A stretch of 64,000 nucleotides of DNA from a virus (Duplodnaviria; Heunggongvirae; Uroviricota; Caudoviricetes): IMG/VR virus record IMGVR_UViG_2778261087_000003. The stretch is one strand, 5' to 3'. The position numbers and the translations under genes were made by a program. Shown here in pieces: positions 2 through 54,152 of the stretch; the stretch's first letter is position 1; each line of letters begins with the position of its first letter. The notes under the pieces were generated by a model that was not told where the DNA came from, did no database searches, and saw nothing but the letters and a program-made list of their open reading frames with translations.

Positions 2-184
2 CATAACGTTGAGGTGCGCAGGGAAGGGGGAAGTAAAGCTCTGCGCATGTACCGCCCGGACGGGAAATGGCGGACGGTCGTCGATTTCAAAACTAACAGC
101 GTTCCCCAGGGCGTCCGTGACCGGGCATTCGAGGAATGGGAGCAGATCATCATAGATAACGCATTGCTCCTGAATGCTGATTAA
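2..184 (+). CDS. 3' end of an ORF that continues past the window start (C-terminal ~60 aa); by position possibly the end of a res-like restriction subunit
   Basis: Frame open from window edge to TAA at 182-184; about 50% GC unlike the adjacent AT-rich gene; convergent with the SIR2-like gene. Confidence 0.3.
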   Translation, partial: HNVEVRREGGSKALRMYRPDGKWRTVVDFKTNSVPQGVRDRAFEEWEQIIIDNALLLNAD

Positions 185-186
185 GA

Positions 187-217
187 ACTCTCCGGCCTAG
201 GGAGATTAGGCCGGAGA
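187..217. terminator. GC-rich inverted repeat (ctctccggcc / ggccggagat) between two convergent genes
   Basis: Perfect 9-bp stem seen in sequence; no clean T-run on either side. Confidence 0.35.
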
Positions 218-225
218 TAAATATA

Positions 226-1530
226 CTATATAAACTTAGATATAATATCGTGAATCTGTTGTAGCGGGATTTCTTCCATCTTACTCTTAATAAGAGAGCG
301 GTTAGATGCTGTCAGTGAAGGCCATTTTGTTTTCCAGGCTAGATATGCTCGCCATGAGTAGCCTGTTTCGTAAGGTTTATTCATATAAGTCATTGAGTGT
401 TCAACCGCATGTATGTATTTTTTCTCAAAGTTGGTTCCTTTTACTTCAAATAAACTACCGAAATAAATAAGCCATTTTGCCAGGTGTTCATACTGCTCCC
501 ATGCGCCAGACTCTTTAGTAAGATCTATTTTTTTATCTATTATATCACAAAAAACATTTAATACCTTTTCATCATTCCAGCTATATCCAGATGATGAAAT
601 GGAGGAAATGATATGATAAAAAGAATCCTCTAACTTCAAGAACTCTATTTTATACTCTCTTCCGTTTTTTATTACCGATTTGATTGAGTGCCTCAATTTG
701 TCTTTTATTTTTTTTGCTTCTGGAATTTTCTTGTTAAGTTTTCTAAAGAAATCAGACACCTCTGTTTTATCTATAACCCTAATCCCAAAGCAGGAAAAAT
801 AGTAATCTTTAATAGGTTGCAATAGTTTCCCTCGGGAAATAAGGAAAATATTGGAGGACATTACGTTGTCCCGTGAAAATACCTTATATTCATTTATAAT
901 CGCCTTGAGGTTCGCGTCACTTAGAGAATAGCCAAGAATAACAATAGTGTTTTCATGTAGAACTGTGCTTAGTTTATTTGAAAAGTAAGAATTACCATTT
1001 ATAAATCTGAAATAATCCTCGCTAGTAACAACCATATCTGATGGGGAGTCTATAGAGCCGTGAACATGGTAGACTTTAACCTCACAATTATATTTTGGAA
1101 TTGGCAGGCCGGGGGTGATTGTACACGTTCGATTCTCTCCAGCCAGTTTTTCTGCTAACTTGTCATAATTTGTCGTAATTACTTTAAATGTGTTTTCTTT
1201 GAAAAAGTCTTGAATATATTCAATTGATGGATCAAGTTCGATTGAGGCTATGATTTTCTCAATCTCCTGGTAAATATTTTTCCCCGAAAGTATAAATTTT
1301 AGTGCAATAACCTGAGCTGCCTCTTCAAGGCTAAGGTCTTTTGCTTTTCCATCAGGAAATAATTCCTCTTTGAGTGAGTCACCATCCTTCAATAAACCGC
1401 ACAGTTGCTCCAATAAAGATTGCCAACTTGGGGCTTTATCATCAGAAACAGCCTTTGAAAATCCAGTGCCTGTAAGAAAGCACAGCCTATGTGTAGCTGC
1501 TGCATAGGCAATTTCTATATACTCGCTCAT
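226..1530 (-). CDS. SIR2-like (sirtuin-fold, putative NAD-hydrolase) protein, 434 aa; candidate single-gene defence effector
   Basis: Motifs FLTGTGFS, TTNYD and HVHGS typical of defence-associated SIR2 domains; GGAG RBS 7 nt upstream of ATG; sampled lines about 30-37% GC versus about 50% in flanks. Confidence 0.6.
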   Translation of the reverse strand: MSEYIEIAYAAATHRLCFLTGTGFSKAVSDDKAPSWQSLLEQLCGLLKDGDSLKEELFPDGKAKDLSLEEAAQVIALKFILSGKNIYQEIEKIIASIELDPSIEYIQDFFKENTFKVITTNYDKLAEKLAGENRTCTITPGLPIPKYNCEVKVYHVHGSIDSPSDMVVTSEDYFRFINGNSYFSNKLSTVLHENTIVILGYSLSDANLKAIINEYKVFSRDNVMSSNIFLISRGKLLQPIKDYYFSCFGIRVIDKTEVSDFFRKLNKKIPEAKKIKDKLRHSIKSVIKNGREYKIEFLKLEDSFYHIISSISSSGYSWNDEKVLNVFCDIIDKKIDLTKESGAWEQYEHLAKWLIYFGSLFEVKGTNFEKKYIHAVEHSMTYMNKPYETGYSWRAYLAWKTKWPSLTASNRSLIKSKMEEIPLQQIHDIISKFI

Positions 1531-1586
1531 TACTTACTCCATTTACTTATAGTTCTACGGAGAAGTATACCCTAATGCATTGACGT

Positions 1587-2228
1587 TTATAGATAATTTC
1601 CTTTTCCTGTTAATACTCCCTTAGGCACCTGTTTTTGTGCCAGCGTTTGGGTTCCGCGAATTATGTTAATCAGAGGGCTTAGTAACGATGGTTCCTGGCG
1701 TGCCTCAACTTCTCCAGCCATTGCCCTGATGTAGTCTGCGCTGGCAACGTTGTTGTATTCCGTCGCAAAGCAACATAGTAACGTCAGAACATGCTCTGTC
1801 GTTATTTCGCTCCAGTTGATGTTGAAAAATTCATCGCCTTTTTTGTCGTGTTCGGAATCGAAGATGCTTTGGTGGAGGATGTATTTGCCGGATTCTTTGC
1901 GCGGTAACTTGATCGCTTTCTGGCGTTCCAGCTCCTTGTAAATCTGCATTGCCTCAATTAGTACCGGCCTGCCGTTCATGAAGGGATCGCGCAACCTTAC
2001 ACGCTGGCCAACTCGTCCAGTAATAAAGCTGTTTTCCTCTTCCACCAGCACGATAAAACCCTTTTCCTCTTTTTCTCGCAATTCGCGCAGCAGCTGGAGT
2101 TCCATATCGCGGCGGCGTTCAGGGTAGCTGGTCCGCTCAGCCATTATCAGCTCGTTATTGATCCATGCAGCAGTCATTGACGCCGGTTTGCCGACGCTCA
2201 TCGAAACAACGCATATTTTCTTATCCAT
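1587..2228 (-). CDS. Hypothetical protein at the position of P1 mat (particle maturation); internal ATG with GGGGG RBS chosen over longer track ORF 1587..2339
   Basis: ORF between ref and the SIR2-like gene; SD tagggggcgct upstream of ATG at 2228; no recognisable domain. Confidence 0.4.
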   Translation of the reverse strand: MDKKICVVSMSVGKPASMTAAWINNELIMAERTSYPERRRDMELQLLRELREKEEKGFIVLVEEENSFITGRVGQRVRLRDPFMNGRPVLIEAMQIYKELERQKAIKLPRKESGKYILHQSIFDSEHDKKGDEFFNINWSEITTEHVLTLLCCFATEYNNVASADYIRAMAGEVEARQEPSLLSPLINIIRGTQTLAQKQVPKGVLTGKGNYL

Positions 2229-2357
2229 AGCGCCCCCTACAAAAAAGAAAAGCCACCAGCGGCGGCTTAGCAATACAACTGAAGGTAGCGCCCGGTACTC
2301 AGACTGTGCCGTCCATGGAATATTTGAAAAGGGATCCATCCGTACCGGGCGTGTGAT

Positions 2358-2417: not shown

Positions 2418-2978
2418 TTAGTGCATGATGTTTGCCATCTCATAGGCGTCAGCCAGCAACTCCATCTCTGACTTGTTCAGCAAGGTGAATTCTTTCTTGC
2501 CTCCAACCACACCATCGGCATGGACAGGGACCAGCCAGGGGTATTTTTCTCTTACTTCAGCCGGTGCTGCATGCTGGTGGTGCCATCTACAAAGGGGCAA
2601 TTGCTTTTTGTGACAACCCGGCGCGGTACGACCGGAGATATGGTGCAGAGATACCTCTTCAGATATTACTCCATGCATATAGCAGGCAATGCAGGGGAGA
2701 GCGCCAAGAGCATTGGCGATGCTCCGTTCCTCCGCTGTCGGTGTTCGCCCCTTCAAGCCACGAGATTTTATCTTTACCGCACTTTTCCGCGTTTTGCTGG
2801 CTGGTGGGCGCTCTTTCTGTTTAGCGATACGGCGGTCGATAGAATCCCGCATTTTCTGATATTGCGATTCTCGCCAGGCGGGGTCAGCCAACTTTTCCCG
2901 TTGCCGAGCGATAGCTCGTTCTCTGGCTGCCTTCTGCCACTTGCGGCACTGTTCAATTTTTTGTTCGTTTGTTTTCAT
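2418..2978 (-). CDS. ref: Ref, recombination enhancement function (HNH-type endonuclease), 186 aa
   Basis: 186 aa, Cys/His-rich HNH-like C-terminal half (CxxC ... HH); position next to cre as in P1. Confidence 0.8.
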   Translation of the reverse strand: MKTNEQKIEQCRKWQKAARERAIARQREKLADPAWRESQYQKMRDSIDRRIAKQKERPPASKTRKSAVKIKSRGLKGRTPTAEERSIANALGALPCIACYMHGVISEEVSLHHISGRTAPGCHKKQLPLCRWHHQHAAPAEVREKYPWLVPVHADGVVGGKKEFTLLNKSEMELLADAYEMANIMH

Positions 2979-4945: not shown

Positions 4946-5019
4946 GATCAAATGATCAAGTGATCACTATTTGACCTGATAAGGTATTGAACTGTATGGA
5001 TTTACAGGTAAATTGATCA
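4946..5019. promoter_or_regulatory. Cluster of GATC (Dam) sites in the cre upstream region
   Basis: gatcaaatgatcaagtgatcac with three GATC in 20 bp plus one at 5016; P1 cre promoters are reported to be Dam-sensitive. Confidence 0.45.
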
Positions 5020-5037
5020 TGTTCAATAACCCTTAAG

Positions 5038-5071
5038 ATAACTTCGTATAATGTATGCTATACGAAGTTAT
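5038..5071. other. loxP site (13-bp inverted repeats flanking the 8-bp spacer)
   Basis: Exact ATAACTTCGTATAATGTATGCTATACGAAGTTAT. Confidence 0.97.
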
Positions 5072-5114
5072 TAGGTCTGAAGAGGAGTTTACGTCCAGCT
5101 GCGCATAAAAATCA

Positions 5115-5131
5115 AGAATTATTAGAGCAAT
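5115..5131. promoter_or_regulatory. C1 operator (Op99-type), reverse orientation
   Basis: aattattagagcaat matches the reverse complement of ATTGCTCTAATAAATTT. Confidence 0.55.
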
Positions 5132-5197
5132 AAATTTTGAGAGAAAAATCCCACTCCACCAGCCAAAAACTGGATTGTTTTTCATAGTTGTTTGACA

Positions 5198-5214
5198 ATT
5201 GCTCTAATAAATTA
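5198..5214. promoter_or_regulatory. C1 operator (Op99-type), forward orientation
   Basis: ATTGCTCTAATAAATTa, 16 of 17 match to consensus. Confidence 0.6.
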
Positions 5215-5452
5215 TAGTTTTGCCGCCGTTTCGTAATACGACTTTGGATTCACTATTTAATGTGTCTTCAGCGTTGTAGAGCGGCTCAGAAGGAAATGAG
5301 CAAACAGGGAAACCTTATACAACGGCATTACAGCTATGCATTGCTCATCTTACACACAGCGCAATGTTGTTAGATTACCCCAGCATGGATCATGGGTGAA
5401 ACAGTAGGTCAGAGCTTCAGGCTCTGTGTTGTCAATACAGTGAGGCATAATT

Positions 5453-53815: not shown

Positions 53816-53971
53816 TTACCTTTCAGATTCGTAGGCTGTGAAGACAGTGACCTCCGTCTGGCCGGTTCGGATTCGTACCTCGCAGAGGTCTTTCCTCGTT
53901 ACCAGTGCCGTCACAATGACGGTTAAACAGATGACGATCAGAGCGATTAACATCGCTTTTTGCTGCTTCAT
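53816..53971 (-). CDS. hok: Hok/Gef-family type I toxin, 51 aa
   Basis: MKQQKAMLIALIVICLTVIVTALVTRKDLCEVRIRTGQTEVTVFTAYESER; AGGAGAAG RBS; missed by the 60-aa ORF track. Confidence 0.9.
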   Translation of the reverse strand: MKQQKAMLIALIVICLTVIVTALVTRKDLCEVRIRTGQTEVTVFTAYESER

Positions 53972-54029
53972 AGCCTGCTTCTCCTTGACCTTTTGGTCGG
54001 TAAGAGGCTAATCTACGTATGCTAAGCAT
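53823..54029 (-). CDS. Mok-like overlapping reading frame (translational coupling frame for hok)
   Basis: 68-aa track ORF starting upstream of and overlapping hok in another frame, as in hok/mok/sok loci. Confidence 0.5.
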   Translation of the reverse strand: MLSIRRLASYRPKGQGEAGYEAAKSDVNRSDRHLFNRHCDGTGNEERPLRGTNPNRPDGGHCLHSLRI

Positions 54030-54152
54030 AGATATGGCCTCAGATTAATGTTAAGCGTCTTGCAGGACGCGTAATGTTATCTGGGGCTTTCTTCTATCTG
54101 CTTTTCGGGTAATGCCTGAAGCAGATAGCCTCAAGCACCCGCAACGATTGTA

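Follow-up and report, generated by a model that had tools for sequence, protein, structure and literature searches.

A compact SIR2-family gene in the lxc–mat slot of a P1-like phage-plasmid, a candidate stand-alone anti-phage NADase carried as exchangeable cargo

The window analysed here is a 64,000 nt stretch of a P1-like member of the Caudoviricetes (IMG/VR record IMGVR_UViG_2778261087_000003). Near its left end, between the P1-type genes lxc and mat, lies a gene for a SIR2-family protein of 434 amino acids (aa), which is the subject of this report. The features of the locus are listed in Table 1. The open reading frame (ORF) was found where an earlier note, made from the sequence alone, had placed it, and is on the minus strand, which that note had not given. 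It begins with ATG, and a GGAG ribosome-binding site lies 6 nt 5′ of the start. All three SIR2 signatures named in the note are present (FLTGTGFS, aa 18–25; TTNYD, aa 119–123; HVHGS, aa 155–159), and a fourth motif of SIR2_2 proteins, GYSLSD, occurs at aa 200–205. The gene has a G+C content of 35.4% (33% at third codon positions). The values for mat, ref and cre are 48%, 52% and 51%, respectively, and that of the window as a whole is 47.5%, in agreement with the low G+C, relative to its flanks, first remarked upon. Genes of this SIR2 family are low in G+C in all of their hosts.

The limits of the foreign segment were located by BLAST against P1 and against RCS47, a related element with an empty site, and fall at about 185/199 and 1590, very close to the insert proposed earlier (187–1590). 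In P1, the interval between lxc and mat carries the two genes of the EcoPI type III restriction-modification system, mod and res, with an IS5 between them. The corresponding interval of RCS47 is a spacer of about 30 bp with no cargo. That of the window holds a SIR2 cassette, consisting of a 56 nt leader, the gene and a hairpin, and both res and mod are absent. The convergent ORF end to the left of the gene had been taken for the terminus of res, but it belongs to lxc, and this flank is annotated as lxc or modulator protein in P1, RCS47 and JL22. The gene is indeed in the restriction-modification corner of the P1 genome, as had been supposed, but it replaces res-mod and does not lie beside res. 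Alignment of the mat-res junction to P1-like genomes, as the note had proposed, shows that the gene is not part of the canonical P1 backbone. Judged from these alignments, it is a horizontally acquired, exchangeable cargo that is absent from canonical P1, in line with the acquisition suspected earlier. To the right, mat and ref are followed by c8 and cre, both on the minus strand. Complete plasmids with a 99.9%-identical gene show lxc-ulx-darB on the left side, so nothing relevant has been lost at the left edge of the window.

Table 1. Genes, domains and signals at the lxc–mat locus of the window.
Feature	Position	Strand	Basis
lxc (bof), 3′ part; C1 co-repressor gene; conserved left flank, outside the insert	14..184	+	95–96% nt identity to lxc of P1 and RCS47
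G+C-rich hairpin with 11 bp stem, between the convergent lxc and SIR2 stops, abutting the lxc stop	189..217	-	terminator scan
SIR2-family gene, 434 aa plus stop	226..1530	-	ORF; Pfam SIR2_2; PHROG 7567; RefSeq WP_000006034.1 'SIR2 family protein'
Family-specific all-helical domain, codons 255–434 (long linker helix, then alpha-solenoid)	229..768	-	
SIR2 (SIRim-type) catalytic domain, codons 1–254	769..1530	-	AlphaFold2 model; profile alignment; Foldseek
SIR2 leader, 56 nt, between the mat stop and the SIR2 start; ribosome-binding site GGAG at 1537..1540	1531..1586	-	
mat (maturation control); conserved right flank, directly upstream of the SIR2 gene in the same orientation	1587..2339	-	94.6% nt identity to P1 mat
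ref	2418..2978	-	RecA_dep_nuc, E=5e-50

The slot corresponds to RD-1, a known variable region flanked by mat and lxc in which res-mod is swapped for other ORFs (PMC6906374); one such cargo, relA_P1, has been studied (PMC10865808). P1-type lxc/mat sequence was detected in about 703 plasmids of the PLSDB database, and in 64 of these the match covered the whole 2.4 kb query, i.e., the allele of the window (allele 1) was present. Elsewhere, RD-1 is occupied by a RelA/SpoT-family (CapRel-like) gene with a small partner, or by genes for PIN/DUF4935, DUF2971, GNAT acetyltransferase or DUF4145 proteins. The SIR2 gene is therefore located in a hotspot, a position held alternatively by type III restriction-modification, RelA/SpoT, PIN and DUF2971 genes. 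The EcoPI res-mod and relA_P1 cargoes share the lxc–mat slot with it, but their genes and mechanisms differ. Most of the alternative cargoes (loci L016, L017, L019 and L020 among them) are uncharacterised as defence genes.

A Pfam search assigned aa 117–245 of the protein to SIR2_2 (PF13289) with a score of 83.8 bits (E=1.6e-23; gathering cut-off 24.5 bits). Nothing else in Pfam was significant, the sole further match at E values up to 1 being OTU (E=0.08); DUF4020 was not detected C-terminal to SIR2_2 at that threshold, and the protein does not have the SIR2_2+DUF4020 architecture. PHROG 7567, annotated as 'unknown function', matches from end to end. A profile of the family aligns aa 7–257 with the SIR2 domain of DSR2 (E=4e-11), and also with ThsA and KomC. 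In this alignment, N121 lies opposite N133 of DSR2, and H157 opposite H171; mutating either of these DSR2 residues abolishes both defence and depletion of nicotinamide adenine dinucleotide (NAD+). N121 and H157 are invariant in 30 homologues, as are D123, G158 and the motif GYSLxDxN. The SIR2 identity and the catalytic Asn/His pair on which the earlier note relied have thus stood up. None of the profile models that it put forward (DUF4020, ThsA and DSR) extends over the protein; matches are confined to the SIR2 core, and DUF4020 is missing.

The AlphaFold2 model (predicted local distance difference test score 85.8, predicted template modelling score 0.83) shows a seven-stranded, Rossmann-like SIR2 domain with a glycine loop (GTGFS) and a variable helical insert at aa 36–112. 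The C-terminal part is a long helix followed by a helical bundle (aa 258–434). The top matches of the model in the PDB, found using Foldseek, were DSR2 (E=4e-11), ThsA and KomC. The TM-score against full-length DSR2 was no better than against a chain consisting of SIR2 only, and the likeness is therefore limited to the SIR2 domain.

Proteins of the immune SIR2 type have been distinguished by the lack of a zinc-binding cysteine tetrad and by a Rossmann sheet of seven or more strands (10.1101/2024.09.18.613514). No zinc site was found in the protein, which has no CxxC motif and no Cys4 tetrad among its six cysteines (three of them conserved), and its modelled sheet has seven strands. On both counts, sequence and model place it with the immune SIR2_2/SIRim proteins and not with the deacylase sirtuins. 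Its current RefSeq product name is 'SIR2 family NAD-dependent protein deacylase'. This label is probably misleading, because the zinc tetrad is missing and the protein groups with immune NADases. The name is one of the points that would fit a regulatory enzyme, a deacylase or ADP-ribosyltransferase that would use NAD+ to act on a protein of the host or plasmid, in the service of maintenance or physiology and not of immunity; such enzymes do occur in the SIR2 superfamily, and relA_P1, a cargo of the same slot, affects host physiology. A role of this kind is nevertheless quite improbable, given that the match is to SIR2_2 and not to the classical sirtuin family, that sirtuins need the missing CxxC/zinc tetrad for substrate binding, that the seven-stranded sheet is of the immune type, and that every one of its closest characterised relatives is a defence-system NADase.

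Among the known systems, DSR2 of Bacillus subtilis (PDB 8WKX and related entries) is the closest in outline. It is the best match in both profile and structure, its catalytic Asn and His align, both proteins are found on mobile elements, and in both a single chain joins an N-terminal SIR2 domain of the NADase type to all-helical solenoid regions. DSR2 is, however, about 1000 aa long. It also has a middle domain, its C-terminal domain is a horseshoe to which the phage tail tube binds, and its sensor resides in the solenoid regions. The protein of the window has 434 aa, and its 180 aa solenoid has no detectable sequence similarity, or specific structural similarity, to DSR2 outside SIR2. The NCBIfam equivalogs Dsr2 and Dsr1 scored 30.6 and 21.2 bits, respectively, over the SIR2 core alone, far under their cut-offs of 1400 bits; with this and its length (434 aa versus about 1000–1200 aa), the protein is not a member of DSR1 or DSR2.

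ThsA is of similar size (about 470 aa), belongs to the same immune SIR2 clade and has aligned TTNYD and HG motifs, but its C-terminal SLOG/Macro domain binds a cyclic ADP-ribose signal produced by the neighbouring TIR protein ThsB. The window protein ends in a helical solenoid instead, and there is no TIR gene in its neighbourhood. Assignment to Thoeris was rejected, as ThsA profiles match at positions 107–215/230 alone, and neither the flank nor complete plasmids contain a TIR gene. SIR2-HerA, the short prokaryotic Argonaute (pAgo) system SPARSA, Kongming KomC and Lamassu LmuA-SIR2 share the SIR2 NADase fold, with expected NAD+ depletion, but require HerA, pAgo/APAZ, KomA/KomB and LmuB/LmuC, respectively, and their profiles match only the SIR2 core. 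Two of these were tried as assignments and rejected. For SIR2-HerA, the gene's neighbours are lxc and mat, no HerA gene lies beside any homologue examined, and HerA-type SIR2 models of PADLOC gave E=2e-6 or weaker; for Lamassu, the LmuA profile matched over positions 21–221 of 433, and LmuB/C are absent from the P1 slot. The best PADLOC match was the candidate system PDC-S25 (E=5e-24), with aa 100–253 aligned to profile positions 127–283. This is 127–283 of 517 positions (517/528-position profile), and the protein was not assigned to PDC-S25. Rousset et al. (2022; system 9, pFR88) cloned a further stand-alone SIR2_2 protein, which came from a hotspot of P4 satellites. PDC-S25 and pFR88 resemble the window gene in being single SIR2_2 genes carried as cargo in mobile-element defence hotspots of Escherichia coli, and neither has validated activity. 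The possibility that pFR88 encodes the same protein was discarded, since it belongs to a different family with an unrelated N-terminus.

The 41 nt and 56 nt spacers beside the SIR2 gene, the complete plasmids and the surroundings of homologues in about ten further settings all lack a partner gene. More specifically, ThsB, LmuB/C, HerA, KomA/B and pAgo genes were not adjacent in any of about 15 loci examined. The earlier note had seen no TIR, HerA or Argonaute gene and had pointed to the cut-off left side; complete plasmids confirm that none lies there. The gene is thus autonomous at its locus. These data bear on the idea that the protein is an orphan effector, dependent on a signal or partner provided in trans, either ThsA-like (a nucleotide from a host TIR protein or cyclase) or LmuA-like (SMC-type partners). 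The PADLOC matches in the SIR2 region to ThsA1 (E=7e-18) and LmuA (E=2e-13) are consistent with it, as is the length of the LmuA profile, which at 433 positions is close to that of the protein. It is still decidedly unlikely, because these profiles align with the SIR2 core alone (21–221 of 433 positions for LmuA, 107–215 of 478 for ThsA), SLOG, Macro and other ligand-binding domains were not detected, the loci examined have no partner gene, and the C-terminal domain is never paired with other effector domains.

The last ~180 aa, in which the note had recognised no motif, likewise matched no known family here, nor did the searches reveal a SLOG, Macro or other domain for ligand binding. In a profile search of 1.84 billion representatives, the domain occurred solely behind SIR2_2, and the notion that it is a sensor module shuffled among other effectors was rejected for this reason. 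A single 820 aa glycosidase/lectin outlier (E=3.5e-4) was taken as spurious. Codons 255–434 are regarded as a candidate module for trigger sensing or oligomerisation.

The family is large. More than 665 full-length homologues were found, with a nearly constant length (about 431–437 aa), 55–61% identity, and an alignment that is collinear throughout. They are distributed over Gamma- and Betaproteobacteria, including Vibrio, Halomonas, Xenorhabdus, Pseudoalteromonas, Marinobacter, Klebsiella, Pantoea, Pseudomonas, Delftia, Paracidovorax and others. The exact protein of the window is present on at least 1000 contigs. Among 5,426 complete E. coli genomes, 70 carry allele 1, and 71 of the 72 copies are on plasmids. 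At the protein level, full-length members of the family were found in 124 PLSDB plasmids, of which about 66 have allele 1, 41 have allele 2, and 17 have a form 86% identical to allele 2. The second allele (L018 1731..3038, NZ_CP024817.1) occupies the same slot in the same orientation, and its protein is 59% identical to that of the window. The third (L028 301..1608, NZ_KU980950.1), also in this slot, encodes a protein 59% identical to the window protein and 86% to that of L018. In all five plasmid loci checked for position, the gene lies between lxc and mat.

The 56 nt leaders of the alleles differ at only one position, although the proteins are only 59% identical. The hairpin at the other end of the cassette is probably its terminator. 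It is particular to the allele 1 cargo, being missing from the empty site of RCS47, and the second allele has a different hairpin there. Synonymous divergence (dS) between the alleles is 0.29–0.67, which seems above the expectation from a backbone flank identity of 94–97%. Since dS seems higher than the flanks predict, this suggests repeated replacement of SIR2 alleles by recombination.

The ratio of non-synonymous to synonymous substitution (dN/dS) for the gene is 0.11, and 0.11–0.13 over both domains, indicating purifying selection. At the level of domains, no positive selection was seen on the helical regions (dN/dS at most 0.22). Conservation is 78% in the catalytic core versus 45–59% in the helical insert, linker and solenoid. 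The gene might alternatively be inert or decaying, a hitch-hiking cargo with no current function; it has no known phenotype, and a few truncated copies of the family do exist in the databases. This is hardly credible for a gene with an intact ORF in about 124 plasmids and hundreds of other genomes, a dN/dS of about 0.1 and invariant catalytic residues, and the selection analysis strongly disfavours it.

Outside P1-like elements, homologues are associated with mobile elements and defence genes. One lies in a small island, with an HNH gene and a fragment of an integrase gene as its neighbours, and another directly follows the integrase at the end of a lambdoid prophage in E. coli. In Marinobacter, the homologue adjoins a type I restriction-modification and GmrSD cluster within a mobile element. 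The Stutzerimonas homologue is located between a NERD-UvrD helicase gene and a DUF2971 gene (L025 11407..12237), DUF2971 being also a cargo of RD-1. That of Paracidovorax, a distant relative, is near PD-(D/E)XK and SMC-like genes, an AAA_23/SMC_N gene lying about 4 kb from it, while the Pseudoalteromonas homologue stands alone.

The protein thus represents a family of its own in the immune SIR2 superfamily, widespread, as yet uncharacterised and DSR2-like in outline. The type of enzyme and the variability of RD-1 were already known; no description of the compact 434 aa family as a cargo of this region was found in the literature. Homology and genomic context point to NADase and anti-phage activity, and we consider it probable that the gene encodes a self-contained abortive-infection NADase of the SIRim class, directed against phages and other mobile genetic elements and carried as exchangeable RD-1 cargo. 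The best profile and structure matches, DSR2, ThsA and KomC, are all anti-phage NADases, which supports this reading. Further support comes from the invariant N121/H157 pair, the seven-stranded sheet lacking a Cys4 module, the occupation of the res-mod slot, the lack of a partner gene, the mobile-element and defence-gene neighbours of homologues, the purifying selection on both domains, the stronger conservation of the catalytic core and the low G+C. In the mechanism proposed, the protein would be present but catalytically silent in the uninfected lysogen. On infection by another phage, a component or consequence of the infection would be sensed by the faster-evolving helical parts, i.e., the insert at aa 36–112, the linker helix and the C-terminal solenoid. 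A change of conformation or oligomeric state would then open the SIR2 active site (N121, H157), and cleavage of NAD+ to ADP-ribose and nicotinamide would arrest the cell and abort the infection, to the benefit of sibling lysogens and of the plasmid lineage.

Several observations weigh against an anti-phage NADase. The fold of the C-terminal domain is a generic solenoid, and a sensor role for it is a guess. No report of this SIR2 family, of its accessions, or of SIR2 in RD-1 of P1 was found in the literature, and a DefenseFinder survey of P1-like elements listed type III restriction-modification, dGTPase, PrrC and CapRel but no SIR2. Defence models of PADLOC (PDC-S25, ThsA1, LmuA and Dsr2) and NCBIfam match the SIR2 core alone. 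Seven systems gave protection against the eight phages used by Rousset et al., and the different SIR2_2 protein encoded by pFR88 was not one of them. The remaining points concern expression. A scan found no consensus sigma-70 promoter in the 56 nt leader, although weak or non-consensus promoters may escape a scan based on the consensus, and no terminator was found between mat and the SIR2 gene. In P1, mat is repressed by C1 and expressed late, and the SIR2 gene lies 56 nt downstream of it in the same orientation. Expression in the lysogen, which defence needs, is therefore the main uncertainty of this reading.

The mat control region of the window (the C1 operator Omat and the promoters Pmat/LPmat) matches that of P1 except at two positions, neither in the operator, and no significant regulatory RNA structure was detected in the SIR2 leader (z=0.06). 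If the gene is transcribed by read-through from the repressed, late mat promoter, this would suggest that it acts in the lytic cycle instead. The NADase would then be made only after induction or infection and could serve in host shut-off, superinfection exclusion or offence, its targets being the host, competing phages or NAD+-dependent host defences. Such a role is favoured by the arrangement of the two genes, which no terminator separates, by the lack of a consensus promoter in the leader, and by the preservation of Omat and LPmat. Yet homologues beside integrases and restriction-modification islands have no mat, which makes the protein independent of the P1 late operon; loss of NAD+ during its own replication would hurt P1; and other cargoes of the slot (res-mod in P1, and relA_P1) act in lysogens. 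The promoter scan also leaves room for weak or non-consensus promoters in the leader. On balance, we give a lytic-cycle or competition role an outside chance. For defence in the lysogen, the leader itself is of interest. It is missing from the empty site of RCS47 and is part of the cargo. Because it belongs to the cargo, having no copy at the empty site and differing at 1/56 positions between alleles, it may carry a non-consensus promoter.

Further signals were noted on the mat side. The 5′ end of the mat ORF (250 codons) contains a strong terminator-like hairpin followed by a T-run (2250..2268, minus strand). In related plasmids, mat is annotated by RefSeq as 213 aa, starting downstream of this hairpin at the equivalent of window position 2228. 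The hairpin raises the question of where mat truly starts and of attenuation into mat and the SIR2 gene. The consensus of the C1 operator, ATTGCTCTAATAAATTT, has 15 matches in the window with up to three mismatches, versus 0.38 expected by chance; examples are 38023..38039 (minus strand), 5198..5214 (plus strand) and 21926..21942 (minus strand). No match at this threshold falls within the SIR2 insert. A second patch of low G+C (about 34%) at 4950..5250, between cra and the c1 side of the immunity region, has two C1 operator-like sites (5115..5131 and 5198..5214).

Elsewhere in the window, an Rfam sok antitoxin RNA (RF01794) was detected in full length at 53966..54140 on the minus strand (114.9 bits), a sequence match that indicates a hok/sok-type post-segregational killing locus on the element. 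The C4 antisense RNA (RF01695; 57597..57682, minus strand) and its a1/b1 target sites (RF03163; 57751..57803, minus strand) mark the P1 ImmI immunity region. Three tRNA genes, all on the minus strand, are tRNA-Met(CAT) at 35501..35576, tRNA-Thr(TGT) at 37204..37279 and tRNA-Asn(GTT) at 37282..37357.

If the SIR2 gene is an active defence, about one-sixth of the P1-like plasmids of E. coli and Salmonella (roughly 124/700 in PLSDB) carry a member of its family in the restriction slot, which would bear on phage therapy, on the host range of P1 transduction, and on competition among the phage-plasmids that spread resistance. A widespread family would then be added to the defence-annotation tools that now miss it, the RefSeq 'protein deacylase' label would be corrected, and the 434 aa chain would offer a tractable minimal model of how an immune sirtuin is held off and switched on. 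More speculatively, and with real doubt, the protein may be the smallest known among SIR2 immune proteins that are fully autonomous, its alleles (59–86% identical) being swapped at one slot by P1-like phage-plasmids to adjust which competitors are kept out, or else an NADase fired from the mat promoter and wired into the switch between lysis and lysogeny. In the latter case, it would not be a constitutive guard; in the former, sensor and NADase would be contained within 434 residues, and the short solenoid, together with the fast-evolving helical insert, would set the specificity for the trigger.

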